From: Methylococcaceae bacterium UBA2778
Lineage (GTDB): Bacteria; Pseudomonadota; Gammaproteobacteria; Methylococcales; UBA2778
Length of the DNA stretch: 55,030 nucleotides
Direction of reading: 5' to 3'
NCBI GenBank assembly: GCA_002352385.1
Contig: DEII01000063.1
Span: 13,575 to 68,604 of the forward strand
Part shown: piece by piece, positions 3,316 through 37,960 of the stretch
How the letters are laid out: every line of letters starts with the position of its first letter
Position numbering within the stretch: position 1 is the stretch's first letter
Made by a program: the position numbers and the translations under genes
The notes under the pieces: model-generated
What the model saw: only the letters and a program-made list of their open reading frames with translations
What the model was told of the DNA's origin: nothing
Databases searched by the model: none

Positions 3316-4652
<1,337 letters not shown>

Positions 4653-14989: not shown

Positions 14990-15260
14990 TATTTACCGCG
15001 GGCTCCGACGTTTACCCTCGTTCGCATGCTCCTGCGTGGGAATGCATCCTGGCACGATAGCCGTAGGGTACGCACCACCTACCTTATCCCTCGGTCAGCC
15101 GGGTAGCGTTGGAACGAGAACCTGCATAGGGCGAGCTTTGCAGACGATCTGCCATCGTGCGCCGCATTATGGCGGAACCCTTCGCGTTCCGCCCTACGCT
15201 CCCGCCGGTTAACGTAATGGCAGTGACGCTCCTGCGTGGAGATACAGGCCGGAGTGATAC
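14990..15260. repeat. cluster of REP-like dispersed repeat units in a 0.5-kb gene-free gap
   Basis: GCTCCTGCGTGGGAATGCATCC (about 15029) and GCTCCTGCGTGGAGATACAGG (about 15227). GTAGGGTACGCACCACCTAC at 15063-15082. CTTCGCGTTCCGCCCTACG at 15180-15198 is the exact reverse complement of 29792-29810. Confidence 0.55.
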
Positions 15261-15382
15261 AAATGGTTCATGCTTGCTTTTGTTGCCGACTTCAACGTAT
15301 TCTTTGGTGGGAAAAAGCCTGCCTAAACCTGCCGTTCATTGCTGTCGACTTCAGACACAGGGAAAAGCCTGTGCACAAAACC

Positions 15383-18117: not shown

Positions 18118-18188
18118 AACTGTGTTGGGCGCGCTGCGCCGTACCTGATCCACACCCCCCAGGAGACGATATGATGAAAAGAGGAGAA

Positions 18189-18590
18189 ATGATGCGAGTT
18201 TTTATCTGCTTGGGCCTGCTTCTAGCCGCTTTCGATGTTTCTGCCATCGAATGCAAATCGGAAGGGAATCAGCTGGAGTTGAATCAATGCGCGCTCGATG
18301 ATTTTGAAAAGGCGGATCGTGCATTGAATGAGACCTATCAGACCCTGATAAAACAGATGCAGGATGACAAGACCTATATCGACGCGCTGCGCGAGGCGCA
18401 GCGGGCGTGGATTCGGTTTCGCGATGCGGAGTTAAAGGCGATGTTTTCCTGTGACGAGGAGGATGTCAGGGTCTGCTGGGGCAGTATGTATAATTTGCTC
18501 TATCTGAATGCCAAGACCGAGCTAACGCAGGCGCGCGCCAAGCGTCTGCAGCGGTTTATCGAGCATGGCCGCAATGTTTGGGTGGAATAG
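18189..18590 (+). CDS. DUF1311 (LprI / lysozyme-inhibitor-like) secreted protein
   Basis: MMRVFICLGLLLAAFDVSA signal. C..EGNQLELNQCA...ADRALNETYQ...AQRAWIRFRDAE is the DUF1311 pattern. Start is uncertain (18171, 18189 or 18192). Confidence 0.7.
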   Translation: MMRVFICLGLLLAAFDVSAIECKSEGNQLELNQCALDDFEKADRALNETYQTLIKQMQDDKTYIDALREAQRAWIRFRDAELKAMFSCDEEDVRVCWGSMYNLLYLNAKTELTQARAKRLQRFIEHGRNVWVE

Positions 18591-18849
18591 TTCCGCGACA
18601 TGCCGCGATCGCTTGACTGGCTGGCGCTCTTACCAGCCGGTTCCGTCGGTGGCGGGCAGCCTGGATTGGCTCGCGGTGTATCGGCGGGGTCTCGGTCTTG
18701 GTTCTGGTTCACCCACCGTGCGCGGCGGCTCCGAAGAGATCAATACACATCCCGCTGATAGATACCGCTTCTGCGCCTGCATCTGTTGGCCGGATCGGCT
18801 CGCCGCGGTGGCTTGAGTGGCTAAAGTCGGGTTTAACGTTACGCTTGGA

Positions 18850-19653
18850 TTACGAGTGATAAAGTAATATCTCGCCCTTATTCAACTCAATCGAATCGCC
18901 GCACCAGCGTTGATAGCTTCCGGTCAACCAGGCATCATCGATTACAAGCCCTAACTCGCGCAAATAATTGAGATAAAAACGCAGGAAGATGGGTTGATAG
19001 GTACAGGAATAACTGAACGTCGGGAGCATCTGTGCCGGTTTCATCGAAACGATCGAACCTCGTTTCATACCGGCGCCGGTTCGAATACCCATTTCTCCCA
19101 ATACGAAAATGGATCCCGCCAACATGTTAAGGCCGGTGAAATCGCCGCTGTTGCCGCCGATTGCGATCAATCCGCGCCTTAATCCACCACCGGCTTCATT
19201 CTTGCAATTACCGTGGACTATGATTTCACCGCCCTGCATTCCAACTTCGGCGCCACGTACGACGCACCCGACCATATGACCGGCATTGCCTTTGATGATA
19301 ATGCTGCCGCCCTTCATGTCTTCCCCGACCCAGTCTTGCGCATTGCCATTGACGACGATCCGGCCGCCGCTCATACCGACGCCGAGATGGCCGCTCACAT
19401 TGCCGTCAATGATCATCTGACCACCGGACATACCTTTCCCGAGCAGCTTGACGAAAGATAGGTCCCCTTCGAGCTCGAGCCTGCCGTTCATTTTCCCGGT
19501 CACGGTAAAGAATTCGCCCAGGGCTTCCTTTCGATTTCCATGATGCACCGTCAGAGCGGATACTTCGGCTTCCGTTAGACCATTCAGCGAAGTGGGACCG
19601 ATGACTTCAGCTTCCAGCGGGACTTCGGGTGCGGTGTGTAGTGTTAATTTCAT
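18850..19653 (-). CDS. fhcC: formylmethanofuran dehydrogenase subunit C / FhcC
   Basis: 267 aa. Repeated beta-helix units G..GxxMxGGxIxVxGNA (GKGMSGGQMIIDGN, GVGMSGGRIVVNGNA, GEDMKGGSIIIKGNA, MQGGEIIVHGN). Confidence 0.9.
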   Translation of the reverse strand: MKLTLHTAPEVPLEAEVIGPTSLNGLTEAEVSALTVHHGNRKEALGEFFTVTGKMNGRLELEGDLSFVKLLGKGMSGGQMIIDGNVSGHLGVGMSGGRIVVNGNAQDWVGEDMKGGSIIIKGNAGHMVGCVVRGAEVGMQGGEIIVHGNCKNEAGGGLRRGLIAIGGNSGDFTGLNMLAGSIFVLGEMGIRTGAGMKRGSIVSMKPAQMLPTFSYSCTYQPIFLRFYLNYLRELGLVIDDAWLTGSYQRWCGDSIELNKGEILLYHS

Positions 19654-19724
19654 AATGGTTTGCCGGCGTGCCGTGCGCTAAAGGATGTTTTTCGAAGGAT
19701 TCAGGAACAGGACGTCTGCCTGCT

Positions 19725-20636
19725 TCAACTCTGCAGCAAAGCGTGCAACTTGATCTGATACTGGCCCAGGTTGCCACCGTAATTCCCCGCTGTTATCTGC
19801 ACCAGGCCCTCGCCCGCGGCAGCATGCATGCCCTGTCGCATTGCCTCACCGACCGACGCTTCCTCCAGGCCGTCGACGACGATCTCGAGCACACAACCGA
19901 TTTCTTCACTCAATTCCGTTTTTGCGGCACTTCCTCGCAACGTGGGGCAATAGGCGTCATTGGTCGAAGCGGGTAATGCTTTGTATCTGGAGCCTGGCTT
20001 GCTACCGCTTCGAACGATCCCTCCGGGAAAAGGCAGAATTACTCCGGGGACCTTCCGCATGGCGCGGGCCGCTACTTCCGCCGCACTCAGCGTGGAAGAC
20101 ATGTCTTTTCCCAGCAGCAGCAGATTGCCGCCGCCAACCGCCGCTTGCACGCCGAACGCATCATCGATCAAAAACTCACCTTCCATCACCGGGATACGCC
20201 ATATTTTCCGACCATTGAGTACCTTACTGGCTTGATAGCCGTCACCGAAATAGCGCAGCTTTTCGCCAACGGCAACGTGCTCTTGCGCCCCTTCCAGGCC
20301 GTTGAAACAAGCCGTCGTCGGGCAGGTCATCACGCTTTGACCAATCCGTTCGGCGAGCCGATTACCGACGCCTTTCGCCGAGCCGGCAAACAACAGAACA
20401 CTGACGCCCGGCCTTTGATCGGGCGTTTCGTCGGCAGACAACGCTGTTTCGATGCCCATTTCGCATCGACAACCGATGACCGATGTCGCGAACCCGGTTG
20501 CCGACTGCGCGGCCGTCATCGCCCATTGATCGGTTTCCGCGGTAATAATGACCCGCGCCGCTGACATTTTAAATGCTTCCGCAAAGGTATCGGTCACTTC
20601 GGTCGTTTGTATATGCATTTTTTTTATTGCAGACAT
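19725..20636 (-). CDS. fhcD: formylmethanofuran:tetrahydromethanopterin N-formyltransferase (Ftr / FhcD)
   Basis: 303 aa. N-terminus ...VTDTFAEAFKMSAARVIITAETDQWA is typical of Ftr. Located inside the fwd/fhc operon. Confidence 0.9.
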   Translation of the reverse strand: MSAIKKMHIQTTEVTDTFAEAFKMSAARVIITAETDQWAMTAAQSATGFATSVIGCRCEMGIETALSADETPDQRPGVSVLLFAGSAKGVGNRLAERIGQSVMTCPTTACFNGLEGAQEHVAVGEKLRYFGDGYQASKVLNGRKIWRIPVMEGEFLIDDAFGVQAAVGGGNLLLLGKDMSSTLSAAEVAARAMRKVPGVILPFPGGIVRSGSKPGSRYKALPASTNDAYCPTLRGSAAKTELSEEIGCVLEIVVDGLEEASVGEAMRQGMHAAAGEGLVQITAGNYGGNLGQYQIKLHALLQS

Positions 20637-20686
20637 CTGCGAATCAGGAAGAAAACCTCTCGGGACTTGGACATTCTATTGTCTTC

Positions 20687-20763
20687 CGGTAGGGCGGGCA
20701 CGCTTTTCTGCCCGCTACGTCGCCGGTGGATTTGGTGTGCAAAAAAGCGTGCCCACCCTACGA
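20687..20763. repeat. REP-like inverted repeat inside the fwd/fhc operon
   Basis: GTAGGGCGGGCACGCTTTT (20689-20707) pairs with AAAAGCGTGCCCACCCTAC (20743-20761) at 18/19. Same GTAGGGCGG core as the 15.2-kb and 29.8-kb units. Confidence 0.65.
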
Positions 20764-20783
20764 TTCAAGACAGTCGGTTCCGG

Positions 20784-22430
20784 TCAGGTCACCGGGATAT
20801 TCGCAATAACCTCTGTGTTGTGCACATGCGTATCGGAAACCGGATAATTGTCGAATTGAACGCTGTAGTAATCGTCGAAGAACGAACGAATTTCGTTCTC
20901 GATACTTTTATCATATTCCGGCGCAATGTGGAATATACGGCCGCTGTGATCCGCGCAGAACTCGTGATTTTTGATAAACAGGTGCCCGTCCTTGATGACG
21001 AACCGGGCGGCATTGAACATCTCTTCCTTGTTGTCCATCTCGTCATAGATCGTGATGTCGGCATCGGCGCCCACACCGAGATGGCCTTTGTTCTTCAACC
21101 CCAGCAGTCGTGCAGGTCCCGCCCGGGTCACGATGGCAATCTCCTGCATGGAATATTCTCGGGTGAGGTCCGGCAAGCTGGTTTTTCCGATTGCTTTCTG
21201 ATTAACGCGGGTTGCCTCCTGGTTGCGGAAATCGCGATCCATCAGCAAGCGGATCAGGCGGGGATAGTTGAGGAATGAGCCGCCGTTGGGATGATCGGTG
21301 GAGAGCACCATTCGCCAGGGATCTTTCGCCATCAGAAATAATTCCAAACCGATCGCCCACTGCAACGTATGGGTATAAACGTGTTGCTGGTATTCGAACG
21401 GAATGATGCCGCACCCACTTTCGCATTCGGTATCCGCGTTGATCCATTTTCGCTCTTTCACGTGGCGCAGCATCCAGGCGAGCGGTGCATCCGCGGTCAT
21501 GCTGACCGATTTCCCGAACATGACTTGGCCTACATCGGCGCTGATATTCGGGTTGTCGTTGACGAAATCGGAGATTGCACGGGCTGCGGAAACCGGGTTC
21601 TTGCCAACCTCCCCGCCATAACTGTGGAACTGGATGTGAGTGATGTGGACCCTGCGTCCTTCGGCCGTACGCATGGTCTCGAGCGTCGTTTCATAGTTTC
21701 CGCTGTGGCCGAGGTTGTTGCAGTGGATATGCGCAGGATGCGGCAGGCCGAGATCGTTGGCGACGTCGATCAACGCCTTGATCACCTTTCTCGGGGTCAG
21801 GTCGAAGGCATGAATCTTCTGGTCCAGCGCCGTGATGTTGGCGTTCTTCTTGCCTTTCCACATCTCATCGGCACCGGGATTCACCAATTTGATCGTGTAC
21901 GCCTTGGTTGCTTTCACCCACCAGGCGACGGCTTCGCGGAATTCTTCCATTCGCCCCTTTTCTAACAGCTGATGCAGCATGCTGTTATTGCCCATCAGGA
22001 CATAGTACCCCTTATCGATGATGGGGGTATCTTCCAGCTCCTCCAAAACGTGCCGAGCGCTCAATGGGGGCACCGCCGCTTCCATGGCAGTCGTGTAGCC
22101 CATGGTGGCGTAACGGTAGCCGGTGGCGAACGTGGAGGGCACGACGCCACCCGACCCCGACCGGGTATATTCGGTGCCGGGATGGGGATCATAACGATGG
22201 TCTTCCGGCTGAAACTTCCTGGCCAGGTTGACTTTGGACCCGGCGATATGGCAGTGTATATCCACACCGCCGGGCATGACCACCATGCCGTGAGCATCTA
22301 TCGTCGGCGCATCCTCCGGCACACTGTCGACAATTTTTCCATCCAGTATGCAGACATCCCGCACCTGGCCATCGATATCGTTGGCGGGATCGTACACTTT
22401 CCCATTGACAATGCGCAGCGTTGAGGACAT
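20784..22430 (-). CDS. fhcA: formylmethanofuran dehydrogenase subunit A / FhcA (amidohydrolase)
   Basis: 548 aa. Metal-binding GGVDIHCHIAG (HxH) and a full-length FwdA-like amidohydrolase. Confidence 0.9.
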   Translation of the reverse strand: MSSTLRIVNGKVYDPANDIDGQVRDVCILDGKIVDSVPEDAPTIDAHGMVVMPGGVDIHCHIAGSKVNLARKFQPEDHRYDPHPGTEYTRSGSGGVVPSTFATGYRYATMGYTTAMEAAVPPLSARHVLEELEDTPIIDKGYYVLMGNNSMLHQLLEKGRMEEFREAVAWWVKATKAYTIKLVNPGADEMWKGKKNANITALDQKIHAFDLTPRKVIKALIDVANDLGLPHPAHIHCNNLGHSGNYETTLETMRTAEGRRVHITHIQFHSYGGEVGKNPVSAARAISDFVNDNPNISADVGQVMFGKSVSMTADAPLAWMLRHVKERKWINADTECESGCGIIPFEYQQHVYTHTLQWAIGLELFLMAKDPWRMVLSTDHPNGGSFLNYPRLIRLLMDRDFRNQEATRVNQKAIGKTSLPDLTREYSMQEIAIVTRAGPARLLGLKNKGHLGVGADADITIYDEMDNKEEMFNAARFVIKDGHLFIKNHEFCADHSGRIFHIAPEYDKSIENEIRSFFDDYYSVQFDNYPVSDTHVHNTEVIANIPVT

Positions 22431-22493
22431 CGGGCTAACCTTTTTTCATTAACAGAGCACGGACCGTTTTGTATTGTGCCTATCCTTCGATCG

Positions 22494-23822
22494 CTAATGG
22501 GCTTTCAGTTCGCGAATGCGTTCCGTCAGCGGCTTCAAAATGTCCAGATCGCTGGGAAAAGGCGACTCGAAGGCCGGCCGCAAGGGGATGGGAATATCGT
22601 CCATCCGGTAAACCGTGCCGGGCACGTTGATGCCGTAGCAGGCCGTGGTAAGAGCGACACGCGCAATTTGGCTGGTCGGCGTGGGCTTGGGATCGAAGGA
22701 GATCACAGGGATCTTTTTCAGGTGTTCGATTGCCGGTCTGGCGAAGTTTGCGATTGGATCGCTGGCGATGATGCAGGCGGCATCGGCTTCGCCGCGGACC
22801 AGAATATCGGTGGTGGTGAACTCGCCCGGTTCATGCCGGGGATAACCGCGATTGAAATTGACACCGAAGGGATAACCGGTCTGCCACGACATGACGGTAT
22901 CGGCACCGGTCACATTGCCGTGTCCACGCGCCGGTTTGACGACGAAGTGGGTGTGCTCGTTGAGATCGGCAGCCAGCAGGTGCAGCGCTCCGGTGTTGTA
23001 ATGGCGGCCGCGGGTCATGGTTAAACCCATTCCGAAAAAGAGGATGCCGTAATTGCAGGACATTAGTCGGTGGGCGACATCCTCGATGGTGGCCATGGGT
23101 ACGCCGGTCTGCTCTTCAATGGATGGGTTCAGCCTGCGACCTCTGGAAATCGATCTCAGGGCCGACAACAGTTCGTAGTCACTGCCCGGTTTCAATTGTA
23201 CAAACAGGTCGGCAATATTCGTCGTCGACGTGGAGCGTATATCGACGTTGATGACCGTGCGGTCTTTCCTGCCGTTAGGGATATACATTCCTTTCGGCAT
23301 AACCGTAAAATGCGTGGACAGTCGGGGGTGACAGTCGGTTGGATTGCAGCCCCAGTAAACAACCATATCCGCGCGGTTTTTGACCTCACCCAGTGTCGTC
23401 GTCGGCTCGCCGACGCCTTGAAGCCCCATGCCGGTCGGTCCGTGGCAGACGGACGAGGTGCTGTCGATGTTTGCGGACAGGTAATCGGCCATCGCCACCG
23501 CTTGCCGCTGCGCTTCGCTGGTGGTGTCGCTGAGACCGTAGATGATCGGAAAACGGGCATTGACGAGTATCTGTGCCGCCTCTTCGATGGCGTCCTCCAG
23601 ACTGGCCTCTTTACCGTCGATCAGCGCGACGGGACGACTTTCGTCCACGGAATGCTCACTGAACCAGGCTTTACCCAAAACACAGGCATTCTTGGATTTG
23701 ATAATGCATTTTTCATCCAAATCCACCGTCAATTCCATATCGTCGCACACGCATCCGCAAAACGTGCAGGTGGCGTTTTTAATGATTGTGGTGTTTTTTT
23801 CCGTTGCAGTGTTTTTATCCAT
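22494..23822 (-). CDS. fhcB: formylmethanofuran dehydrogenase subunit B / FhcB (molybdopterin-oxidoreductase fold)
   Basis: Start taken at MDKNT (ATG 23822), which overlaps the fwdD stop by 8 nt. N-terminal CTFCGCVCDD...C..(7)..C is a CX2CX3C..C Fe-S-type motif. SSVCHGPT is analogous to the (Sec/Cys)-His active site of formate dehydrogenases and FwdB. Confidence 0.85.
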   Translation of the reverse strand: MDKNTATEKNTTIIKNATCTFCGCVCDDMELTVDLDEKCIIKSKNACVLGKAWFSEHSVDESRPVALIDGKEASLEDAIEEAAQILVNARFPIIYGLSDTTSEAQRQAVAMADYLSANIDSTSSVCHGPTGMGLQGVGEPTTTLGEVKNRADMVVYWGCNPTDCHPRLSTHFTVMPKGMYIPNGRKDRTVINVDIRSTSTTNIADLFVQLKPGSDYELLSALRSISRGRRLNPSIEEQTGVPMATIEDVAHRLMSCNYGILFFGMGLTMTRGRHYNTGALHLLAADLNEHTHFVVKPARGHGNVTGADTVMSWQTGYPFGVNFNRGYPRHEPGEFTTTDILVRGEADAACIIASDPIANFARPAIEHLKKIPVISFDPKPTPTSQIARVALTTACYGINVPGTVYRMDDIPIPLRPAFESPFPSDLDILKPLTERIRELKAH

Positions 23823-24189
23823 CGTCTTCCTCCGGGGCCAAAGGCCCTTCGATTTCAACTACCAGATGTTTGGATGCGGGCATACCGGTACCGGCCGTGT
23901 CGCCATCGACCATCAACGCCGAGGTGGTCGGCCCGTATGGCATGAAGATCAAGCCCGAGGAGTTGTCCGTGACCTTGATTTTTCGCGGTATACAGGAAAC
24001 GACGACCGCATGGGTGCCCACACGCAGACGAACCCGGTCGCCTTTCTTCAGCCCGAGGCGATCCATGTCCTCCTGCTTGATTTCAGCCGTGGAAGTCGTT
24101 TCCTTATAGGCATCCTTGAGCTTGCCTGCATTCAGGGTCGTGCCTTGCTTGGTGGTCCGCATGGGAACCAGGATCATGGTTTCCGTCAT
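23815..24189 (-). CDS. fwdD: formylmethanofuran dehydrogenase subunit D-like protein (molybdopterin dinucleotide-binding beta-barrel)
   Basis: About 124 aa. ...RTTKQGTTLNAGK...IKQEDMDRLGLKKGDRVRLRVGTHAVVV...IFMPYGP...TAGTGMPASK..VVEIE parallels archaeal FwdD as I remember it. Start is uncertain (24189 or 24177; the track gives 24222). Confidence 0.7.
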   Translation of the reverse strand: MTETMILVPMRTTKQGTTLNAGKLKDAYKETTSTAEIKQEDMDRLGLKKGDRVRLRVGTHAVVVSCIPRKIKVTDNSSGLIFMPYGPTTSALMVDGDTAGTGMPASKHLVVEIEGPLAPEEDDG

Positions 24190-24344
24190 TGGCTTGATAA
24201 ATAGTGAGTGAAACAGCGACAAACGTCGAGATGAACTGCTTGAATCATCCCATCTTACCAGTTTCGTGTAAATGTCCGGTCCAATAGGCTGTCCCGGACC
24301 TTATCTTGGCCTTTACGCCCGGGCGTTACACCGTCCATAACCGA

Positions 24345-24668
24345 TCATCTCTCCAACAATTCAAGCTTGCCTTCTTTACCGTTCCATTCATCCGCATCGG
24401 GAAGGGGATCCTTCTGCTCGGTAATGACCGGCCAGATTTGTGACAACTCCGCGTTCAGTTCGAGAAAGTTTTCTTGGCCTTCCGGTATCTCGTCTTCGGA
24501 ATAGATTGCATTTGCCGGACACACCGGCTCGCACAGTGTGCAATCGATGCATTCGTCCGGGTCGATCACCAGGGTGTTCGGCCCTTCGTGAAAACAATCG
24601 ACAGGACACGGGTCCACGCAATCGGTATATTTACATTTGATACACTCTTCGCCGACAATAAAAGTCAT
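24345..24668 (-). CDS. fdxA: 7Fe ([3Fe-4S][4Fe-4S]) ferredoxin, Azotobacter FdxA type
   Basis: 107 aa. [31 protein letters not shown]...[16 protein letters not shown]. Confidence 0.85.
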
Positions 24669-24801
24669 AACATTTTCCTTATCATCTAAATGGACGCACG
24701 TTTCATTTTCGACCTTCTCCCGGAAGGAGGAAGAGGGTCGCTCAAATGCTTAGGTTGTCGTATTAAATAACAAACGGTCACGTATTGCAAAGCGGTTGAC
24801 T

Positions 24802-27800
24802 TCACACATGAGGAAGGTCCGCCGCATCGGTCATCATGCCTAAAATGCCGACACTCTGCTTTTCGAGAACGTTGTTCTGGCGCAGGCGCGAATTCAGGAA
24901 GCTGAAGTCCACTTCGTCCATACCTTGATCCTGATTGAAGCAGGAGAACACGAACGTCTCCTCGCCGGTCTCGGGATCCACATGGCGCTGCAAACACTGA
25001 GCGCAGACCTTTTTCATCATGCACTGCATCGGCGAGTTGATGGAAGCGACAGCCACGTGCTCCTTCAAATACGGCTGCAGCAGCGACGGGTCGTGACGCG
25101 CAGCCTTGACCGCCGCCATCATGCGATCGGAACCGATGGCAACCAGATGTTCGGCCTCGTCCAGCGGAAAAAGCTGCGCCCCGAACTCACCATTGGAGTA
25201 GGCGATCATCGCCTGCACGATGTTGCCACGGAAATGGGCGTCGCGGGGGCGTTGCGGCTCGATTTGGTCACCCATGTCGGTGGAAAAGATGACCTGGTCG
25301 GTGGCCTCCTCGACCTCATCGCGTTTAAACAGGTCCGCACCATTCTTGTAACCGGCGAAATAGAGCACCTTGGAGCCCGCCTCTTTGCAGGCTTTGGCGA
25401 TGCTGAAGAGCACGGCATTGCCCAAACCGCCGCCGAGAAGAACTACATTGGCGTTCGACGGGATCTCCGTCGGCGCCCCGGTCGGCCCCATGCAGACAAC
25501 TTCTTCACCCGGCTGCAGATAGGCACACAGGTCGGAAGAACCGCCCATCTCCAATATGATCAAGGAGAGCAGGCCCTGCTCTTTGTCCACCCAGGCGCCG
25601 GTGAGGGCCACCCCTTCCATAGCCATTCTGAACCCTTTTATTTTGGGTGCATTGGCATCGAAGTTCTGCAGGCGGTAGAACTGGCCGGGGTGGAACTTCC
25701 GGGCCTGGTACGGGGCGCGCAGAACGACCTCGGTAATTGTCGAGGTCAGGCGCTCCACTCGAACGACCCGCGCCTTCAGCACATCATCCAGACGCGCCAC
25801 AAATTCCGTGTGCGCCCTGTCTCTTTGTCGCTGACCGGCAGGATCGAGGCCGCTGATCTCCGACCGAAAAATATCCACGACCTTCGGATAGCCGTTGCGC
25901 GCGGAGGCCATGGCTTTAACGACGTTGCCGGCATAAGCCGGATGGTTGTCGCCGTAATAGGACACCGTCAACCCTTCTTTATTATAGGAGGTGAAAAATG
26001 ATGCAGCAGGATCTTTGTCGTCCGCCAACTTGATCTCACCGTTGCTCTTAGCCGCATTGAACGGCTTGAAAAACTTGCCGTCGATGTCGAAGGTGTCGGG
26101 GTGCTCCAATTCGTATACGATGTTGGGGCTGGTGCCCGCCGCCACCATCAGCGAGCGGCAGGGCAGTTCCACTTCGTCATCCGATCCCTTGTAGCGGGCG
26201 CGCAACGTTTTGATGCTGCCATGCTCGTCGGCGACCGCTTCGGTCGGCGAGATGGTTTCGTCGAAGTAGATGCCCTCCTCCAATGCTTTGATGACCTCTT
26301 CGTGGTTCAACCGGTAGGCGGGGGATTCCTGAACGGTGCGGCGGTAGGCAAGCGTCACCCCGCCCCAGCCCCGAACCAGCTTGATCATGTCCGGCTCCCG
26401 CCCTTCGGTCGCGGCTCGTTCTTTCTCGGCGACGACCGCCTTGCCATGGGCAATGAATTCCTCATAGATGGTCTTCTCTTCCCCGACCAACTTCTCCAGG
26501 AATGCGTCCAGCCGGCCCTCGGCCTTCAGGATCGCGCTGCGTTTGAGCACTCGTTCCACCATCGCCGGGTAGTAGGCCATCAGCTCGGTGGCGGTATCGA
26601 TTGCCGTGAGCCCACCACCCAGAACCACCGCCGGCATCCGCACCTGTAGGTTGGCGAGAGAATCGTCCTTTGAAGCCCCGGTCAACTGCAACGCCATGAG
26701 GAAGTCGCTGGCCATGCGCACGCCGCGCAGGAGATTATTCTTCATCGGCACGATGGTGGGCTTGCCCGCTCCGGTGGCGATGGCGACGTGGTCGAAGCCG
26801 AGTTCGGCTGCGTCTTCCAGCGTCAGCGTGCCGCCGAAGCGCACGCCGCCATAGGCGGTAAACCCGGGCTTGCGAAGCAGAGTAAGGTATAGCAGGCGCA
26901 GGAAGTTCTTATCCCAGCGCACGGTGATGCCGTACTCGGATACCCCACCAAAACCGTCCAGGATACGCTGATCCAGCGGCTGGATGAAATCCTGCCAACT
27001 CGGCAGCGGCGCAAACCCCTCGCCAACCTGCTCTCCCGGCAAAGGCTCCAGCTTGAGACCGTCCACCGCAACGACGGCGAAGCCCTCGCTGGTCAGGAAG
27101 TGAGCCAAAGTATAACCGGCGGGCCCCAGTCCAACCACCAAAACCCGCTTGCCGTTCAGGGGGAGTTGATAAGGTCGACGAATATTCAAAGGGTTCCAAC
27201 GGGTCAGCAGGCCATAAACTTCCATACCCCAAGGCATATCTAATACATCCGTAAGAATACCCGTTTCGATCTGCGGAATGTTGACCGGATCCTGCTTCTG
27301 AAAGATGCAGGCTTTCATGCAATCGTTGCAGATGCGATGCCCGGTACCCGGACACATCGGGTTGTTGATCATCACTGTCGCCAGCCCGGCGAGCGCATCG
27401 CCCTGCTGCCGCAACAACTGGGCCTCCGAGATGTGCTCATCCAGCGGGCAGCCGTCCAGCACGATGCCCACGGGGTTGGTCTTGGTGTTGCCTTTCTTGT
27501 CCTTGACCCCTTTGTAGCAGGAATCTCGCTCCTGGTTGTGACAGAAAATGCACAGATCAAGCTCGCCAATCATCTCAGTGTGCTCATAGCGGTGGTCGGT
27601 CAACTCGAAACCGACCCGATGGCGGTAAATCGCTTCGGAGCCCTGAAAAAAGTGAGGCTTGTCGGGGTGCGGATATTCGCGCTCAACCAGGTTGCGAAAA
27701 TCGACTTTTTGCTGCAGGCGGAAGATCTCCCAGTGGCGGGTGGCGGCCGGACGAGGCTTGCTGTCAACCTGGTAGGCGCTCCAGATTTGAACTTTTCGGA

Positions 27801-28452
27801 TAAGATCGCCCACCGCCGTTGCCAGGGCCTCAAGATCAGCGCCGGTCGGAAATGTCGAATCCATGCTCTGCAGGCGATCTACGGCTGTGCCGGCCTCTTC
27901 AGGGAATCCTCCCCCGTCCGCCTTGGCGGAATCAATCGCGTTCTCAAGTGAAATTAGGGCCGTCACCATTCGGGCAAAGGCTTGTTCTTCGCTCCCCTCT
28001 TTTTGGGGTTCACCCAAAGTCCGTGTGAGTTCCGTCACCTTCCGGTCCAGTGCGGTGATGTCGGCGCCCTCCCGGTCTGCCGGTTTCAACCCCTTGACCA
28101 CCCGCTTGCGTACGAAGTCCCGCCGCACCGCAAGCATGGTGTCCAATTCACGCGTCTTGGCTTCAACCTCTCGGCAGGCTTGGTCCAGACCGAACATGGT
28201 GCTCAAAAAGCGGGACAGGTGGGGACCGACGGCCTCCGTTACCCAGCTCTCGTCTTGCCGGGTGGGATTAGCCTGTTCGAGGAGTTCCCGGTATCGGCGT
28301 CCAACTTCCGGATCCCGCTCAGCCAAATCGTCGGAAAAACGTTCCTGCAGGAGACGGAGCCTTTCAGGTTGGAACAAGTCGCGATAGCTGAATCCCTCAA
28401 TCCCGAGGGCCAATGGCTCGCCGTTCTTGTTATCAGCAAGTGGTTCTGTCAT
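24802..28452 (-). CDS. 1216-aa multidomain flavoprotein: about 300-aa helical N-terminal region + GltD/NfnB/SudA-like Fe-S/FAD/NAD(P)H module + PyrK/NfnA/SudB-like FAD/[2Fe-2S] module
   Basis: Cys clusters CIFCHNQERDSC, GCPLDEHISE and CPGTGHRICNDCMKACIF. Dinucleotide folds VLVVGLGPAGYTLAHFL and VVLGGGLTAIDTATE. C-terminal FNR-like barrel (RFHPGQFYRL..., VVLLGGGLGNAVLF). Terminal Cys motif CMMKKVCAQCLQ...FSC resembles PyrK. Confidence 0.75.
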   Translation of the reverse strand: MTEPLADNKNGEPLALGIEGFSYRDLFQPERLRLLQERFSDDLAERDPEVGRRYRELLEQANPTRQDESWVTEAVGPHLSRFLSTMFGLDQACREVEAKTRELDTMLAVRRDFVRKRVVKGLKPADREGADITALDRKVTELTRTLGEPQKEGSEEQAFARMVTALISLENAIDSAKADGGGFPEEAGTAVDRLQSMDSTFPTGADLEALATAVGDLIRKVQIWSAYQVDSKPRPAATRHWEIFRLQQKVDFRNLVEREYPHPDKPHFFQGSEAIYRHRVGFELTDHRYEHTEMIGELDLCIFCHNQERDSCYKGVKDKKGNTKTNPVGIVLDGCPLDEHISEAQLLRQQGDALAGLATVMINNPMCPGTGHRICNDCMKACIFQKQDPVNIPQIETGILTDVLDMPWGMEVYGLLTRWNPLNIRRPYQLPLNGKRVLVVGLGPAGYTLAHFLTSEGFAVVAVDGLKLEPLPGEQVGEGFAPLPSWQDFIQPLDQRILDGFGGVSEYGITVRWDKNFLRLLYLTLLRKPGFTAYGGVRFGGTLTLEDAAELGFDHVAIATGAGKPTIVPMKNNLLRGVRMASDFLMALQLTGASKDDSLANLQVRMPAVVLGGGLTAIDTATELMAYYPAMVERVLKRSAILKAEGRLDAFLEKLVGEEKTIYEEFIAHGKAVVAEKERAATEGREPDMIKLVRGWGGVTLAYRRTVQESPAYRLNHEEVIKALEEGIYFDETISPTEAVADEHGSIKTLRARYKGSDDEVELPCRSLMVAAGTSPNIVYELEHPDTFDIDGKFFKPFNAAKSNGEIKLADDKDPAASFFTSYNKEGLTVSYYGDNHPAYAGNVVKAMASARNGYPKVVDIFRSEISGLDPAGQRQRDRAHTEFVARLDDVLKARVVRVERLTSTITEVVLRAPYQARKFHPGQFYRLQNFDANAPKIKGFRMAMEGVALTGAWVDKEQGLLSLIILEMGGSSDLCAYLQPGEEVVCMGPTGAPTEIPSNANVVLLGGGLGNAVLFSIAKACKEAGSKVLYFAGYKNGADLFKRDEVEEATDQVIFSTDMGDQIEPQRPRDAHFRGNIVQAMIAYSNGEFGAQLFPLDEAEHLVAIGSDRMMAAVKAARHDPSLLQPYLKEHVAVASINSPMQCMMKKVCAQCLQRHVDPETGEETFVFSCFNQDQGMDEVDFSFLNSRLRQNNVLEKQSVGILGMMTDAADLPHV

Positions 28453-28811
28453 AGGATGTTTCCTCTTTTTCTTCTCAATGCGTGCGACGTTTATGGATCA
28501 ATCATCAGGATAGAGTCACCTCGGCAGCCTTTCCGTTTAATACGACCAAGCGCCCGTATCCTAACACCGGCGGTTCAGTGCGATCAACCATTGCGGCCCC
28601 GATGCCGACGTTCGGATAAGCGTGGCGCTGCTTGGTCGCCCGTTTATCTCTGTTGCCTACCACGATCCCGTTCAGCAGGCGATCATGGTTCGTTTGCTTG
28701 AAAGGATTCTCCATTTCGGCATTTATAACACAACCGCGGCGCCTTACTCAAACTCAATTGAAACCCAGTGATCACTTGGTTGGCCGGGCGGCTTGCAGGC
28801 AAGCGGTTTCC

Positions 28812-29516
28812 TCAGCCTTGCCGGTGCTGCGCGCGGTGTCGAACATCGACACCTTTAACAAGATAGATGACGTATTCGGCCAGGTGTTCGGTATGCTCGG
28901 ACAAGCCTTCCAGCGCCTTGATCACCAGCGTCAGATTGATGGCGTGTTCGGCGTTGTTGGCATCTTCGCGTGCGAAGGCGGTCAGACGCGCCAGGCTCGA
29001 CTGAAAATCGGAGCCGCGCTCCCGGTTGCCGTTGAGCAGGGCTTCGGCAATGGTGGCATCCAGCGTGTCCAACGCATCCAGCGCCTCCTCGAGCAGCTTC
29101 AGTATGCCGGTCGCCATCGTATCGACATCCCGAAATACGCTGCCGCCTGAGTGAATTTCCTCTCGATTGTGGATGCTCAAAGCGATCTGGGCGATTCTTA
29201 CCGCCTCGTCGCCGATCCGCTCGAGATCGGTGATCACCTTGGAAAAGGCCATGGTGACTCTGAGATCGCGCCCGATCGGTCCGTGCCTGCTGATCAGCGA
29301 TATGATCGAGTCGTCCGCCGTCAGTTCCAGTGCATCAAGCCGGGGTTCGCGGGTGATCACGTTGCTGGCGGCTCTGAGATCGCCGTGGCGGAAGGCCGCC
29401 AAAGCCAAGCGGCTCTGATCCAGGGCAAGGCCGCCCATTTCAACCATCAGCAGATGGATGTGGTTCAGTTCACCGTCATAGGTGTGATCGGCGTGCCCTT
29501 CGAGTGAAAATGCCAT
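28812..29516 (-). CDS. phoU: phosphate signalling complex protein PhoU
   Basis: 234 aa. Two PhoU repeats with E/D..D...ERIGD-type motifs (TDLERIGDEAVRIA; EHLAEYVIYLV). Confidence 0.9.
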   Translation of the reverse strand: MAFSLEGHADHTYDGELNHIHLLMVEMGGLALDQSRLALAAFRHGDLRAASNVITREPRLDALELTADDSIISLISRHGPIGRDLRVTMAFSKVITDLERIGDEAVRIAQIALSIHNREEIHSGGSVFRDVDTMATGILKLLEEALDALDTLDATIAEALLNGNRERGSDFQSSLARLTAFAREDANNAEHAINLTLVIKALEGLSEHTEHLAEYVIYLVKGVDVRHRAQHRQG

Positions 29517-29791
29517 GGTATCGCTTGTCAGCCTGCATTGAAGCGGTCGGATCCAAACAGAGACCGGCCTGTGTCAAAAAGGTTAATCATAGCAGTGCGT
29601 GAAGATAGGATTCAATGCCGAGGCGTTTTTCCATGATCGAAGGTGATGCTGAAATAACCTCAAAAACCGATATCCGGGAGCTTGAGTATCGGCTCGTTAT
29701 CAAGCTTGGAACCACGATTGTCGTAGCAATCGGCATCGTGGCGACACATGTCAAACCGCTGTAGAAATCGATCACGGGCGTGTGACAGGTA

Positions 29792-29870
29792 CGTAGGGCG
29801 GAACGCGAAGCGGCCCGGGGCCGCACGCGTGATGGTGAGACGCCCGCTTCCGGCATCAGTCTGCCCGCAG
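29792..29870. repeat. REP-like unit in the phoU-pstB spacer
   Basis: CGTAGGGCGGAACGCGAAG (29792-29810) is the exact reverse complement of 15180-15198. A GC-rich imperfect palindrome follows. Confidence 0.5.
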
Positions 29871-29871
29871 G

Positions 29872-30765
29872 TCAGCCGAACCGCCCTGTAATATAATCTT
29901 CGGTCAACTGGTGCTGCGGGTTGCGGAATATCTGCTCGGTTTCCCCGACCTCGATCAGATCGCCGAGATGAAAATAGGCGGTACGGCGCGAGACCCGGGC
30001 GGCCTGCTGCATGGAGTGGGTGACGATGCAGATGGAAAACTGCTCCTCCAGCTCCATCATCAGCTCTTCCACTTTTGCCGTGGATATGGGGTCGAGCGCC
30101 GAACAGGGCTCGTCCATCAGGATCACCTCGGGTTCGACCGCGATGGTGCGGGCGATGCAGAGCCGCTGCTGCTGTCCGCCGGACAGTCCTGTTCCAGGCT
30201 GGTCGAGCCGATCCTTGACCTCGTCCCACAGTCCGGCCCGCTGCAGGCTGGTGACGATGATCTCTTCCAGTTCGGATTTGTGATCGTAGAGGCCGTGAAT
30301 TTTCGGACCGAATGCCACATTTTCCCAGATCGATTTCGGAAACGGATTGGGTTTCTGGAACACCATCCCCACCGAGGCGCGCAGCGGTACAACGTCGATC
30401 CTCGGATCGTTGATGTTCTCCTCGCCCATGAGGATCTCGCCGATGACGCGGCAGCCGTCGATGGTGTCGTTCATCCGGTTGAGGCACCGCAGGAACGTGC
30501 TTTTTCCGCAGCCGGAGGGCCCGATCATGGCGATGATCTCGTTTTCGCCGATGTCGAGCGACACATTGTTGATGGCCTGCTTGTCGTCGTAAAAGACATT
30601 GACGTCGGTACAGCGCATGCGCGGATTGTCAACCCGGCACTCGCCGATAGTGGTCCGATGTTCGCGGTGGACGCGCGCGGTCGATTGCGGGGTTGCGACC
30701 ACCTGAATTACTTCGGCTTGTTCGAACTGGTCAGCTTGACCGACTGCTTCTTTGGTTTCGTTCAT
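29872..30765 (-). CDS. pstB: phosphate ABC transporter ATP-binding protein PstB
   Basis: Walker [10 protein letters not shown], signature LSGGQQQRL, Walker B ILMDEP. I prefer the ATG at 30765 to the TTG at 30786. Confidence 0.9.
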
Positions 30766-31017: not shown

Positions 31018-32346
31018 CTACCAACGGCGCTCGAAGCGCTTGCGCAGGAAGACCGCCAGCGAGTTCATGGCGATCAGAAAGAGTAGCAGAACCATGATCG
31101 CTGCCGACGTTTTTTCCACGAATCCGCGCTCCGGACTGTCGGCCCAGAGATAGATCTGCACCGGCAAAACGGTGGACGGGTCGAAAATTCCGGAAGGGAC
31201 GTCGACGATGAACGCCACCATACCGATCATCAACAGGGGGGCGGTTTCGCCCAGGGCGCGCGCCATGCCGAGGATGGTGCCGGTGAGCATGCCGGGCATG
31301 GCCAGCGGCAGCACATGATAGAGCACCGTCTGCACTCGCGATGCGCCGAGACCGAGGGCCGCTTCGCGTATCGACGGCGGCACCGAGGTCAAGGCGGCGC
31401 GCCCGGCGATGATGATCGTCGGCAGCGTCATCAGGCTGAGCACCAGGCCGCCGACAAGCGGCGCCGAGCGGGGCAGCCCGAAAAAATTGAGAAAGACCGC
31501 AAGGCCCAGCAGACCGAAGACGATGGAAGGGACGGCGGCCAGATTGTTGATGTTGACCTCGATCAGGTCGGTCAGGCGGTTGCGCGGTGCGAACTCTTCC
31601 AGATAGACCGCCGCGGCCACGCCGATGGGAAAGGAGAGCGCCACCGTTACCAGCAGGGTGTAGAACGATCCGACTGCGGCGCCGCGAATCCCGGCCAGCT
31701 CCGGATCACGCGAGTCGCCGGCAGTAAAGAAGGTGCTGTTGAACCGCTTTTCGATCCGTCCCTCGGCGATCAGGCGGTCGATCCAGCGGTGCTGAATCGC
31801 CTTCAGGCGCCCGGAATCCTCGCTGGTGCGTTCGGTGTGGCCTTTGATGAACATGTCCACATCGTCGTTGGCGGGTAGCCACAGGCTCTTTGTGATTCCG
31901 ATCAGGTTGGGCTCTTCCAGAACCTGGTTTCGGAGAATGAAGTCGGCGCCGGGGCTCACCAGCGCATAAAGCGCCCGTTTGTCCCGGCGACTCGTCACCT
32001 CTGGAAAGAGCGATCGCAGCGAGGCTTTGACCAGTCCGCCGTAGTCTGCCCGGCTCAAGGCGGCGCGGTCGCGCTGGATGCCGAGCCCAAGATTGTCGGC
32101 GCTGAAATCGATCTCCAGGCGGATGTAGGTCTGTTCGAATGCGGTATAGCCCTTGGCGACGATGCTGACGAAAAGCAGCGCCAGAAAAGCCAGTCCCAAC
32201 CAGATCGCGACTCTGCCGTAGAGGCGGAATCGGCGCTCGGCCTGGTGGCGTTTTTTGAGGCCGGAGCGCACCCGTTCGATGGTACGGGAGCGGGGCGGTT
32301 TACCGGGTGCGTTGCCGGCAATCGAGGAAGAGTTTGTATTATTCAT
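31018..32346 (-). CDS. pstA: phosphate ABC transporter permease PstA (long form with N-terminal extension)
   Basis: Multi-TM protein with an EAA-like loop (REAALGLGASR). The ATG at 32346 gives an 8-nt overlap with the pstC stop; the track start at 32388 overlaps by 50 nt. Confidence 0.85.
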   Translation of the reverse strand: MNNTNSSSIAGNAPGKPPRSRTIERVRSGLKKRHQAERRFRLYGRVAIWLGLAFLALLFVSIVAKGYTAFEQTYIRLEIDFSADNLGLGIQRDRAALSRADYGGLVKASLRSLFPEVTSRRDKRALYALVSPGADFILRNQVLEEPNLIGITKSLWLPANDDVDMFIKGHTERTSEDSGRLKAIQHRWIDRLIAEGRIEKRFNSTFFTAGDSRDPELAGIRGAAVGSFYTLLVTVALSFPIGVAAAVYLEEFAPRNRLTDLIEVNINNLAAVPSIVFGLLGLAVFLNFFGLPRSAPLVGGLVLSLMTLPTIIIAGRAALTSVPPSIREAALGLGASRVQTVLYHVLPLAMPGMLTGTILGMARALGETAPLLMIGMVAFIVDVPSGIFDPSTVLPVQIYLWADSPERGFVEKTSAAIMVLLLFLIAMNSLAVFLRKRFERRW

Positions 32347-33721
32347 ACTGTTCCCGGTATTTGCGAACGACATGAAGGGCGATGACATTGAGGATCAGCG
32401 TGATGATGAACAGCACCAGGCCGAGTGCAAAGGCGGCCAGCGTTTTCGGACTGTCGAACTCCTGGTCGCCGGTAAGCAGGGTCACGATCTGCACCGTTAC
32501 CGTGGTCACCGCCTCCAGAGGATTGGCGGTGAGATTGGCTGCAAGCCCGGCCGCCATTACCACGATCATCGTTTCGCCGATGGCGCGCGAGACCGCCAGC
32601 AGCACGCCGGCGATAATTCCCGGCAATGCCGACGGGAATATCACCTTGCGGATCGTTTCGGATTGGGTGGCGCCCAATGCATAGGCGCCGTCTCTCATCG
32701 CTTGCGGGACGGCATTGATGACATCGTCGGAGAGAGAGGAGACGAACGGGATGATCATGATGCCCATGACCAGGCCGGCGGCCAGGGCGCTCTCGGATGC
32801 GACATCCAGTCCCAGTGCCTGGCCGGCGTCGCGGATGAACGGTGCCACCGTCAGCGCGGCGAAGAATCCGTATACCACGGTGGGAACTCCGGCGAGAATC
32901 TCGAGCAGGGGCTTGGCGGCGGCACGGAACTTCGGCGAGGCGTATTCGGACAGGTAGATTGCCGACAGCAGCCCGACGGGCACCGCGACCAGCATTGCGA
33001 TGAACGTGATCAGCAGCGTTCCGGCCATCACCGGGACCATGCCGAAGGCGCCCGAAGAGCCGACCTGGTCGGCGCGGATGGCGGTCTGCGGGCTCCATTT
33101 CAACCCGAACAGGAAGTCGGTCACCGGCACCGCCTCGAAAAAACGGATCGATTCGAACAGCACCGACAGCACGATGCCGATGGTGGTGACGATGGCAATG
33201 CTTGAGCAGATTTTCAGAAAAGCGACCAGCAGCGTTTCGACCGTGTTGCGCGCCCGCTGATGCGGCTTGATTCTGGTCAGTGCCAGCCAGCCGAGCGCAG
33301 CGGCGATCGACAGCACGACAATGGTCAGGATGGCATGGCTGGTTGCAGTCAGGCTTTTGTAATGTTCGGCCGCCTTGAGCAGGGCCGGATCGGCGTCGGC
33401 CGAGGGGGCGTGGCCGTGCACCAGATTCCTGATGTCGTTCAGCACCAGCGTCAGCCGGCTTTTGTCGAGCTGGCGTATGTTATCCGGTAGACCACCGAGC
33501 ACCATCTTGGTGATCAGCGTCGGCTCCAGCATGAGCCAGACGGCGGCGATCAGCAAGCCCGGGGCGGCGCACCAGATAGCCGTGTAGAGCCCGTAATAGA
33601 TCGGCAGGGAGTGCAGGTTCCGCAATTTTCCCTGGGCGACGGCAAAGGCCCGGCTGCGGCCGGCGTAGTAGGCGAGCGTGGCCAGGGCCAGCAGCGTGAT
33701 GACCAATGTTGAGCCTTGCAT
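32339..33721 (-). CDS. pstC: phosphate ABC transporter permease PstC (long form)
   Basis: 460 aa, multi-TM, permease loop MRDGAYALGATQSETI. Confidence 0.85.
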   Translation of the reverse strand: MQGSTLVITLLALATLAYYAGRSRAFAVAQGKLRNLHSLPIYYGLYTAIWCAAPGLLIAAVWLMLEPTLITKMVLGGLPDNIRQLDKSRLTLVLNDIRNLVHGHAPSADADPALLKAAEHYKSLTATSHAILTIVVLSIAAALGWLALTRIKPHQRARNTVETLLVAFLKICSSIAIVTTIGIVLSVLFESIRFFEAVPVTDFLFGLKWSPQTAIRADQVGSSGAFGMVPVMAGTLLITFIAMLVAVPVGLLSAIYLSEYASPKFRAAAKPLLEILAGVPTVVYGFFAALTVAPFIRDAGQALGLDVASESALAAGLVMGIMIIPFVSSLSDDVINAVPQAMRDGAYALGATQSETIRKVIFPSALPGIIAGVLLAVSRAIGETMIVVMAAGLAANLTANPLEAVTTVTVQIVTLLTGDQEFDSPKTLAAFALGLVLFIITLILNVIALHVVRKYREQYE

Positions 33722-37750: not shown

Positions 37751-37960
37751 TCGAACATACGGGATCTTATTATTCGTGTTCTGCGTGGGGGATTGGGGCG
37801 CCTGCCGCTCACGAATGGCAGCAGGCGCCTCTCGCCGGTTCTGAAAGGGGCACAGGTCAATGCCCGGTGTATTTCTGAAGTCGGTGCCCATATAATATAG
37901 CCTATCCTCGAGAAGCTATTTGTGCGCCTGTATGACACTTCGTCATTTCTAGAAAAAGCT

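Follow-up and report, generated by a model that had tools for sequence, protein, structure and literature searches.

The closest described relatives of the protein considered here are the NADH-dependent ferredoxin:NADP+ oxidoreductases (Nfn), in which an NfnB module works together with an NfnA module. NfnA is recognized by the signatures ERxPxT and DGTGMCGxCRx10CV, the Asp ligand giving a [2Fe-2S] cluster of +80 mV, while NfnB is recognized by RCx2Cx4Cx3CPV and GRVCPQExQCx3C (Liang et al. 2019, PMC6405883). The related enzyme Xfn (NfnII) has a ferredoxin:NADP+ oxidoreductase activity that is independent of NAD+ (PMC6405883), and a set of fused Nfn homologues termed 'Pattern C', in which the B module precedes the A module, has been described and is uncharacterised (Liang et al. 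2019, PMC6405883). Another fused protein, PRK06567, has been reported as a hallmark gene of the Rickettsiales without known function (PMC3641634).

The subject of this analysis is a 1216-aa fused iron-sulfur flavoprotein, referred to below as the giant protein, which is encoded in a 55,030-nucleotide stretch of DNA (the window) from Methylococcaceae bacterium UBA2778 (contig DEII01000063.1, positions 13,575 to 68,604). Its family is already known, though uncharacterised, and what is new and informative is the gene context: the gene of the giant protein lies directly upstream of fdxA, which encodes a 7Fe ferredoxin, and of the fwd genes for a formylmethanofuran dehydrogenase (Fwd) that is probably of the redox type. 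The best-supported model, in which we have moderate confidence, is that the giant protein is a ferredoxin:NAD(P)+ oxidoreductase linked to Fwd, with FdxA as its one-electron partner. The window locus is the sole genomic context we found that suggests a partner (FdxA) and a pathway (oxidation of formyl-methanofuran) for the family.

The giant protein and its relation to Nfn

The gene is preceded by an AGAGGA Shine-Dalgarno sequence. Its product has full-length homologues with E = 0, so that the open reading frame is not a chance one; its coordinates and anatomy agree with those given in a preliminary description of the window (Table 1). Full-length homology to NCBIfam model NF005128 (PRK06567; 610.9 bits, E 4e-183) places the protein in the uncharacterised PRK06567/Pfam RP005_N family. 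With an equivalog cut-off of 1072 bits, this score makes the protein homologous to the Rickettsiales protein and not its equivalog, and it is about 190 aa longer than the 1031 positions of the model. The model is named for similarity of domains and not for a function. In contrast to the family as reported, the window gene adjoins fdxA and fwd.

The fusion is not an isolated case, and the family is very large. When full-length coverage is required, it comprises at least 7985 clusters at 90% identity, which span Acidobacteriota, Myxococcota, Planctomycetota, Gammaproteobacteria and Rickettsiales. Two short family peptide patterns alone match at least 597 species genomes, including those of Acidobacteriota, Myxococcota, Planctomycetota, Nitrospirota, Chlorobiota, Gemmatimonadota, Binatia and Methylococcaceae. 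Literature searches found no biochemically characterised member of PRK06567/RP005_N, in agreement with the preliminary description. In a rough neighbor-joining tree the giant protein and its closest relatives group with planctomycete-type sequences, apart from the Methylococcaceae orthologues, a position which in such a distance tree is compatible with acquisition of an extra copy. A planctomycete source for the window was considered and rejected, since a pepN_proteo equivalog (1272 bits), RsmD, DegQ, the FdxA_Protbact ferredoxin and a FwdB that is 65-71% identical to proteins of gammaproteobacterial metagenome-assembled genomes indicate Pseudomonadota, probably a gammaproteobacterium.

The preliminary description recognized a helical N-terminal region that it could not place, followed by NfnB/GltD-like and NfnA/PyrK-like modules, and Pfam, Protein Data Bank (PDB) sequence searches and Foldseek bear out this arrangement. 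Pfam matches are limited to Pyr_redox_2 (residues 436-654) and a weak NAD_binding_1 (1005-1116). In the PDB sequence search, residues 360-752 match the NfnI large subunit (5jca_L, E 8e-16) and residues 892-1061 the NfnI small subunit (5jca_S, E 2.7e-14); T. maritima NfnAB comes next and the small chains of glutamate synthase (GltD) are far behind (E 8e-4). An AlphaFold2 model of residues 17-1215 (pLDDT 78.7, pTM 0.79) gives the same order of relatives in Foldseek, the best match being 5jca_S (NfnI-S; E 2e-12, TM-score 0.78 normalised to the target), followed by 5vj7_A (Xfn), 5jca_L (NfnI-L) and 4ylf_B (T. maritima NfnB) with target TM-scores of 0.61-0.64 and then by NfnABC, dihydropyrimidine dehydrogenase, GltD and PyrK. 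Two names were considered for the protein and rejected. It is not glutamate synthase's small subunit, as there is no gltB nearby and the similarity to GltD is far below that to Nfn, and the label '2-polyprenylphenol hydroxylase/UbiB' is a legacy name for an FNR/PyrK-like domain for which there is no supporting evidence.

Assignment of the N-terminal domain to RP005_N is indirect, as the PF27156 matches are the precomputed ones of protein P0001, which is 99% identical, and of almost every homologue listed, where the domain is followed by Pyr_redox_2. Foldseek found no fold match for this domain in the PDB (best E-value 1.0). A search of 1.84 billion representative proteins with the domain returned 414 matches, mostly short contig fragments, in which it is always N-terminal and no other domain architecture could be established. 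An invariant R-x-R-x-GF-x-LTD-x-R motif marks the point at which it joins the Fe-S domain.

Conservation of the cofactor ligands was followed in an alignment of 36 homologues, down to 54% identity. C300, C303, C311, C334, C374, C377 and C381 of the Fe-S domain are invariant (36/36), while C366 is Cys in 29/36 only. The seven invariant residues would suffice for two [4Fe-4S] clusters if there is an eighth ligand, and in the alignment to NfnI-L the GCP element and C374/C377/C381 fall on the Nfn cluster motifs. The four cysteines of the C-terminal motif (C1143, C1149, C1152 and C1170) are likewise invariant (36/36), and the two Rossmann motifs, GLGPAG (GxGxxG) and GGGLTA (GGGxTA), and the YRR motif are also conserved. 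The preliminary description had made an intact Fe-S chain and intact flavin sites a check on its reading; the key cofactor-binding residues are present and conserved in the alignment, and the cofactor sites look intact.

The giant protein thus resembles Nfn in having the two-module architecture and fold, as seen in sequence and in Foldseek, with the same predicted inventory of two [4Fe-4S] clusters, an FAD/NADPH site, an FAD/NAD site and a [2Fe-2S] cluster. Nfn proteins are its best matches in both sequence and fold, and its gene adjoins a ferredoxin gene. The NADPH-site motifs of the B module, with two basic residues for the 2'-phosphate, are present, GGGLTAIDTA (611-620) and Y702-R703-R704 aligning with GGGNTAMDAA and YRR of NfnL, and Y702 and R703 are invariant. 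On the strand that corresponds to ERxPxT of the a-FAD site the giant protein has E945-G-V-A-L-T950, in which Glu and Thr are invariant and Arg and Pro are replaced. It differs from Nfn in that one chain holds both modules, B before A, and in having an additional helical N-terminus of about 290 aa and a helical insertion of about 70 aa (residues 624-695) in the NADPH domain. Its [2Fe-2S] site has Cys ligands throughout where that of Nfn is Asp(Cys)3, its cluster spacings are Cx2Cx7Cx22CP and Cx2Cx3C instead of RCx2Cx4Cx3CPV and CPQExQCx3C, and its family, the activity of which is predicted only, is found mainly in aerobes. Since the protein has the architecture and fold of Nfn and not the signatures, it is not classed here as an Nfn, though it may work like one.

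The B-then-A order noted in the preliminary description is confirmed, but it is not unprecedented. PRK06567, PRK12779 and 'Pattern C', all uncharacterised, already include such fusions, and the order alone is therefore not new. The giant protein shares with the PRK12779-like and 'Pattern C' proteins the C-terminal placement of the a-FAD, NAD and [2Fe-2S] domains. It differs from them in scoring just 106 bits to NF009415, and 'Pattern C' proteins are about 940 aa long with no RP005_N described.

The fwd operon and its linkage to the giant gene

On the minus strand the genes are ordered pstC-pstA-pstB-phoU (33721 to 28812), giant gene, fdxA and fwdD-fwdB-fwdA-ftr-fwdC (24222 to 18850). The gap between phoU and the giant gene is 359 nt, that between the giant gene and fdxA is 133 nt and that between fdxA and fwdD is about 150 nt, which confirms the earlier placement of fdxA some 130 nt downstream and then fwdD. 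A promoter/terminator scan gave one sigma-70-like match, in the fdxA-fwdD gap, and neither this gap nor that between the giant gene and fdxA has a terminator-like site. The scan performed no better than on shuffled sequence and so does not settle the operon structure. An Rfam scan of window positions 18000-30000 found nothing relevant.

Identification of FdxA as an Azotobacter-type 7Fe ferredoxin, as proposed in the preliminary description, is upheld by its score against NCBIfam FdxA_Protbact (NF045490; 164 bits, cut-off 135), its DUF3470 tail (4e-23) and the Cys pattern C-x2-C-x4-C-x3-CP ... C-x2-C-x2-C-x3-CP. FwdD matches Pfam Molydop_binding (30 bits, cut-off 26.8) and NCBIfam FwdD (2e-17) and is 53% identical to FwdD of locus L090. 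The mechanical reading frame of fwdB (22494-23858) begins at a TTG and overlaps fwdD; homologues and a 100%-identical cluster representative of 442 aa indicate that it really starts at the ATG at 23825.

Fwd oxidises formyl-methanofuran, and its relative Fhc, as found in Methylorubrum extorquens, is a hydrolase. Fhc has lost Cys118 (Ser there), His119, Arg288, the N-terminal [4Fe-4S] domain and the FwdD fourth domain (Hemmann et al. 2019, PMC6926001). The window cluster is like that of M. extorquens in its homologous subunits and in the order B-A-D(ftr)-C, and unlike it in having everything that Fhc has lost. FwdB of the window keeps SVCHGP (equivalents of Cys118 and His119) and RGHGN (equivalent of Arg288), aligned with archaeal FwdB 5t5i_B, as well as the N-terminal [4Fe-4S] motif CTFCGCVCDD...NAC (CxxCxxxC...C), and a separate FwdD is present. 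It is also much closer to archaeal FwdB (5t5i_B, E 2e-110; 9sfi_Q, E 1e-113) than to M. extorquens FhcB (6s6y_B, E 7.6e-17). Bacterial FwdB homologues with 65-71% identity keep the catalytic and [4Fe-4S] residues, their labels being Gammaproteobacteria, Methylococcales, Chromatiales USCg, Gemmatimonadales and Anaerolineae. The B paralogues of the Fhc type that occur in L090 and L174 lack the Cys-His and RGH residues, and that of L174 also lacks the Fe-S cysteines. These paralogues serve as an internal control, from which it follows that conservation in FwdB is not mere phylogenetic inertia. Judged by its residues, FwdB of the window looks like a true dehydrogenase, and an Fhc hydrolase was rejected for the neighbours of the giant gene since all dehydrogenase features are present. 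No genes for biosynthesis or transport of a Mo/W-pterin cofactor were seen in the window.

Bacterial FwdB of the Cys118 type was noted earlier in surveys of metagenome-assembled and single-amplified genomes (PMC10100899, PMC7325909), and the literature searched holds no biochemical study of such a protein. Methylococcus capsulatus growing on methane needs FwdA, FwdB, a ferredoxin and Rnf (PMC13108547), a requirement that is consistent with a ferredoxin-linked Fwd in aerobic methanotrophs. A second cluster of the Fhc type (B-A-ftr-C, no FwdD) occurs in genomes with redox-type fwd (L090:16358-19368, L174:4195-8857), and with both clusters together, CO2-releasing and formate-releasing formyl-methanofuran enzymes seem to coexist.

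Linkage of the giant gene to fdxA and fwd was surveyed in 169 loci with a giant homologue, of which 143 have at least 1 kb and 112 at least 3 kb of downstream sequence. Matches to FdxA and Fwd of the window were found by tblastn only in L001 (76% identity), L086, L087 and L093 (72%) and L092 (74%), and the order giant-fdxA-fwdD-B-A-ftr(-fwdC) is kept in L001, L086/L093 and L092 (72-76% identity). The upstream flank varies within this clade and consists of pst-phoU, pntAB or a gene for pterin-4a dehydratase. In L001, pntAA/pntAB/pntB, which encode proton-translocating transhydrogenase, are immediately upstream on the same strand (L001:6772-9748). In L174, an 80% relative, the contig ends just past the giant gene, and directly upstream of it, on the same strand, there is a cluster of the Fhc type. 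The giant-fdxA-fwd linkage is real but confined to the clade with at least 72% identity. The co-occurrence proposed for study in the preliminary description thus holds in the window's own clade, while about 164 of the 169 loci show no such link in their flanks, which is the scattered distribution that the description had named as evidence against its reading.

Other fwd operons carry a different pair of redox genes. The fwdD-B-A-ftr-fwdC operons of L090, L091 and L173 end with genes for a 101-aa FdxA-like ferredoxin and a homologue of FprA/adrenodoxin reductase. Of the four fwd operons of this kind that were compared from outside the clade, three thus have this terminal module, the Anaerolineae-labelled locus being without it. 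The 101-aa ferredoxin is 46-49% identical to FdxA of the window and scores 120 bits against FdxA_Protbact, which is under the cut-off. The FprA homologue has 458-464 aa and matches M. tuberculosis FprA (1lqt_A) with E 1.5e-115. In the literature searched, no description of a ferredoxin and FprA output module for bacterial Fwd was found. Within the giant-bearing clade L086 has both systems and L001 has a second ferredoxin but no FprA, and the window has neither; no ferredoxin or FprA-like gene follows fwdC there, and the only window ferredoxins found by tblastn are FdxA and a YfhL-type protein at 4383-4640.

Given this stepwise loss of ferredoxin and FprA, the giant protein with FdxA is most simply read as a replacement. 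In this simplest reading, drawn from five loci, the pair would do the job of the ferredoxin and FprA, which is to pass electrons from Fwd to the pyridine-nucleotide pool. Both are pairs of a ferredoxin and an NAD(P)-linked flavoprotein attached to fwdDBA-ftr-fwdC, and the fold of FprA is related to the GltD/NfnB FAD and NADPH domains of the giant protein. FprA differs in having no Fe-S clusters or second flavin module, in its single nicotinamide site and in being encoded downstream of fwdC, whereas the giant gene is upstream of fwdD. The pntAB genes upstream in L001 and the M. capsulatus requirement (PMC13108547) are consistent with replacement.

Possible roles of the giant protein

The proposed role builds on observed features, namely the domains that the giant protein contains, its conserved ligands and similarity of fold, the features by which FwdB resembles the redox type, and the comparisons of gene order. 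From these we infer an electron path, the identity of the partners, a direction and any energy coupling by confurcation with NADH. The Mo/W-pterin of FwdBD would be the site where formyl-methanofuran is oxidised to CO2, and the electrons would exit through the [4Fe-4S] cluster of FwdB to FdxA. FdxA would dock at the Fe-S domain of the giant protein, which would re-oxidise it and pass the electrons to NADP+ and/or NAD+. NADP+ would be reduced by the NfnB-like FAD, and the [2Fe-2S] cluster and second FAD would form a link to NAD(H), either as a confurcating input as in Nfn or as a second outlet. The formyl-methanofuran/CO2 couple has a potential of about -530 mV, and the clusters of Azotobacter-type 7Fe ferredoxins have potentials of about -420 and -650 mV. 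With potentials this low, energy-coupled transfer would be thermodynamically sensible. A [2Fe-2S] site made up of Cys only speaks against a plain copy of Nfn's high-potential branch.

Several observations weigh against this role for the giant protein. About 164 of the 169 loci, those of Methylococcaceae included, have no ferredoxin or fwd gene in their flanks, and relatives with 63% identity or less carry the giant gene alone. Clustering the neighbours of 87 loci revealed no neighbour that is conserved across the family, the commonest recurrent ones occurring in at most 11 of the 87 and reflecting synteny in Pyrinomonadaceae. The linkage comes from one narrow clade of about four independent genomes and the window, and within the window the gaps of 133 nt and about 150 nt and the sigma-70-like match between fdxA and fwdD leave co-transcription unproven. 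FdxA is of the canonical housekeeping type, and the pair could serve general ferredoxin reduction instead of Fwd. The Nfn signatures are not matched and all functions in the family are predictions: the NfnA [2Fe-2S] motif with Asp as its first ligand is absent, the giant protein having C1143-MMKKV-C1149-AQ-C1152-x17-C1170 with Cys as the first ligand in 36/36 homologues, and in place of the NfnB cluster motifs it has LC300-x2-C303-x7-C311-x22-C334-P and HRIC374-ND-C377-MKA-C381. The use of tungsten or molybdenum by FwdB is likewise deduced from residues alone.

In a rival reading the giant protein, with or without FdxA, would be a housekeeping redox enzyme for general needs, for instance reducing FdxA for Fe-S or isoprenoid enzymes or acting as a soluble transhydrogenase, and its position next to fwd would be incidental, without a particular connection to oxidation of formyl-methanofuran. 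Incidental adjacency remains a serious rival, even if we consider it somewhat unlikely. It accords with the occurrence of the giant gene alone, amid variable neighbours, in about 164 of 169 loci from many phyla, with its standing as a Rickettsiales 'hallmark' gene (PMC3641634), with the assignment of FdxA to a canonical equivalog and with the possible promoter between fdxA and fwdD. It does not account for an order with fwd that is kept across 72-82% identity while the upstream flank changes, or for the stepwise loss of a dedicated ferredoxin and FprA module in exactly the giant-bearing clade, and the grouping with planctomycete-type sequences in the neighbor-joining tree is compatible with an extra copy that was recruited. 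A different kind of role, which appears very unlikely, is that of an electron-input module that passes electrons from NAD(P)H to another partner or to a substrate held by the N-terminal domain, in the manner of GltD within glutamate synthase or of the N-terminal half of dihydropyrimidine dehydrogenase, one option being direct docking on FwdC, which is homologous to the C-terminal domain of GltB. Both enzymes are structural relatives of the giant protein in Foldseek, the N-terminal domain is conserved and confidently folded with its invariant R-x-R-x-GF-x-LTD-x-R motif at the Fe-S junction, and the GXGXG domain of FwdC is related to glutamate synthase (PMC6926001). However, no gltB-like or other catalytic partner is conserved beside the giant gene, the similarity to GltD (E 8e-4) is much weaker than that to Nfn (E 8e-16), and invariant Cys or His residues of the kind expected at a catalytic metal site are missing from the N-terminal domain.

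A stronger form of the ferredoxin:NAD(P)+ oxidoreductase model is that the giant protein is a true bifurcating or confurcating Nfn in one chain, with the NfnB-like FAD as the bifurcating site and the reaction Fd(red) + NADH + 2 NADP+ <-> Fd(ox) + NAD+ + 2 NADPH, where Fd is ferredoxin. The cofactor inventory and modules are those of NfnAB, the closest solved structures are of Nfn, there are two separate nicotinamide sites with a YRR signature of the NADPH type in the B-like half, the partner would be a low-potential 7Fe ferredoxin, and pntAB adjoins the giant gene in L001. This form is nonetheless unlikely. The giant protein has an all-Cys site where NfnA is defined by a high-potential Asp(Cys)3 [2Fe-2S] site, its counterparts of the NfnB cluster motifs are spaced differently and are without the PQE element, and the family occurs mostly in aerobes. 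In addition, Xfn/NfnII, one of the fold matches, works independently of NAD+, from which it follows that fold similarity does not imply bifurcation. Of the bifurcating or confurcating partner put forward in the preliminary description, a ferredoxin-linked role near fwd is made more plausible by the redox type of the fwd genes and by the ferredoxin and FprA pair of related fwd operons, which the window is without, while bifurcation, with the Nfn signature motifs unmatched, stays hypothetical.

A broader and decidedly speculative proposal, which we regard as improbable, is that RP005/PRK06567 is the missing physiological reductase of 7Fe FdxA in aerobes, from Rickettsiales to Acidobacteriota and Myxococcota, working by flavin-based bifurcation and in this lineage harvesting low-potential electrons from formyl-methanofuran dehydrogenase. 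NADPH would then reduce FdxA and NAD+ together, or the reverse would take place, in air-exposed cells. Nfn-type chemistry would extend from anaerobes into widespread aerobic phyla if the giant protein acts as a ferredoxin:NAD(P)+ oxidoreductase, all the more so if it is bifurcating. The comparisons also indicate that many bacteria, including gammaproteobacterial relatives of methanotrophs, carry a redox-type Fwd besides or instead of the non-redox Fhc, and Fwd operons with dedicated ferredoxin/reductase modules would change how the last C1 oxidation step and the electron yield are modelled in aerobic methylotrophs.

Feature coordinates and other genes in the window

Table 1. Coordinates of the giant gene, its domains and the linked genes. 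Positions are those of the window unless a locus is named; residue numbers are those of the giant protein.
Feature	Coordinates	Strand	Remarks
Giant gene, PRK06567/RP005-family fused iron-sulfur flavoprotein	24802..28452	minus	1216 aa, ATG start
N-terminal all-helical domain, aa 1 to ~290 (Pfam PF27156 RP005_N)	27583..28452	minus	pLDDT 85; no invariant Cys/His
Fe-S domain, aa ~295-400	27253..27570	minus	seven invariant Cys
GltD/NfnB-like FAD and NADPH domains, aa ~430-880	25813..27165	minus	GLGPAG 440-445, GGGLTA 611-616, YRR 702-704
PyrK/NfnA-like FAD barrel and NAD(H)-binding domain, aa ~890-1135	25048..25785	minus	EGVALT 945-950, GGGLGNA 1006-1012
C-terminal all-Cys motif C1143-x5-C1149-x2-C1152-x17-C1170, predicted [2Fe-2S] site	24943..25026	minus	
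fdxA, 7Fe ([3Fe-4S][4Fe-4S]) ferredoxin, Azotobacter/Pseudomonas type	24345..24668	minus	107 aa
fwdD, molybdopterin-dinucleotide-binding 'fourth domain' subunit	23815..24192	minus	reading frame 23815-24222; start probably ~24190
fwdB, redox-type catalytic subunit	22494..23825	minus	
fwdA, amidohydrolase subunit	20784..22430	minus	TIGR03121 709 bits, cut-off 393
ftr (fhcD), formylmethanofuran:tetrahydromethanopterin formyltransferase	19725..20636	minus	NF002554 440 bits, cut-off 297
fwdC, GXGXG beta-helix subunit, last of cluster	18850..19653	minus	TIGR03122 247 bits, cut-off 131
Ferredoxin and FprA module of other fwd operons	L090:14060-16065, L091:13817-15538, L173:12815-14525		

Two overlapping genes for MMR_HSR1 GTPases lie just past the end of the fwd cluster (15236-18117, plus strand). 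One product (448 aa) matches DUF697 weakly and the other (512 aa) shows a weak match to dynamin-N; in L091 and L173, too, the fwd locus is followed by a gene for a similar GTPase. On the other side of the giant gene, PstC and PstA (31018-33721, minus strand) are about 460 aa each, with N-termini that reach about 160-210 residues beyond the NCBIfam models; these may be over-extended reading frames or real extensions.

The YfhL-family ferredoxin (plus strand, just after coaD), the only window ferredoxin other than FdxA, is of the 2x[4Fe-4S] type and scores 125 bits against a cut-off of 86. Two genes for MauG/MbnH-like di-haem cytochrome c peroxidases (7459-9375 and 10978-12006, both plus strand) flank an alpha/beta hydrolase gene, and the first of the two encodes a 638-aa protein with an N-terminal extension of about 290 aa that has no family match. 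A 598-aa protein with cyclic-nucleotide-binding and rhodanese domains is encoded at 36095-37891 (minus strand). The 805-aa product of 52513-54930 (minus strand) contains five DUF11 repeats and is likely a repeat protein of the surface or associated with the cell wall. The window also encodes a pepN_proteo equivalog (1272 bits), RsmD and DegQ.

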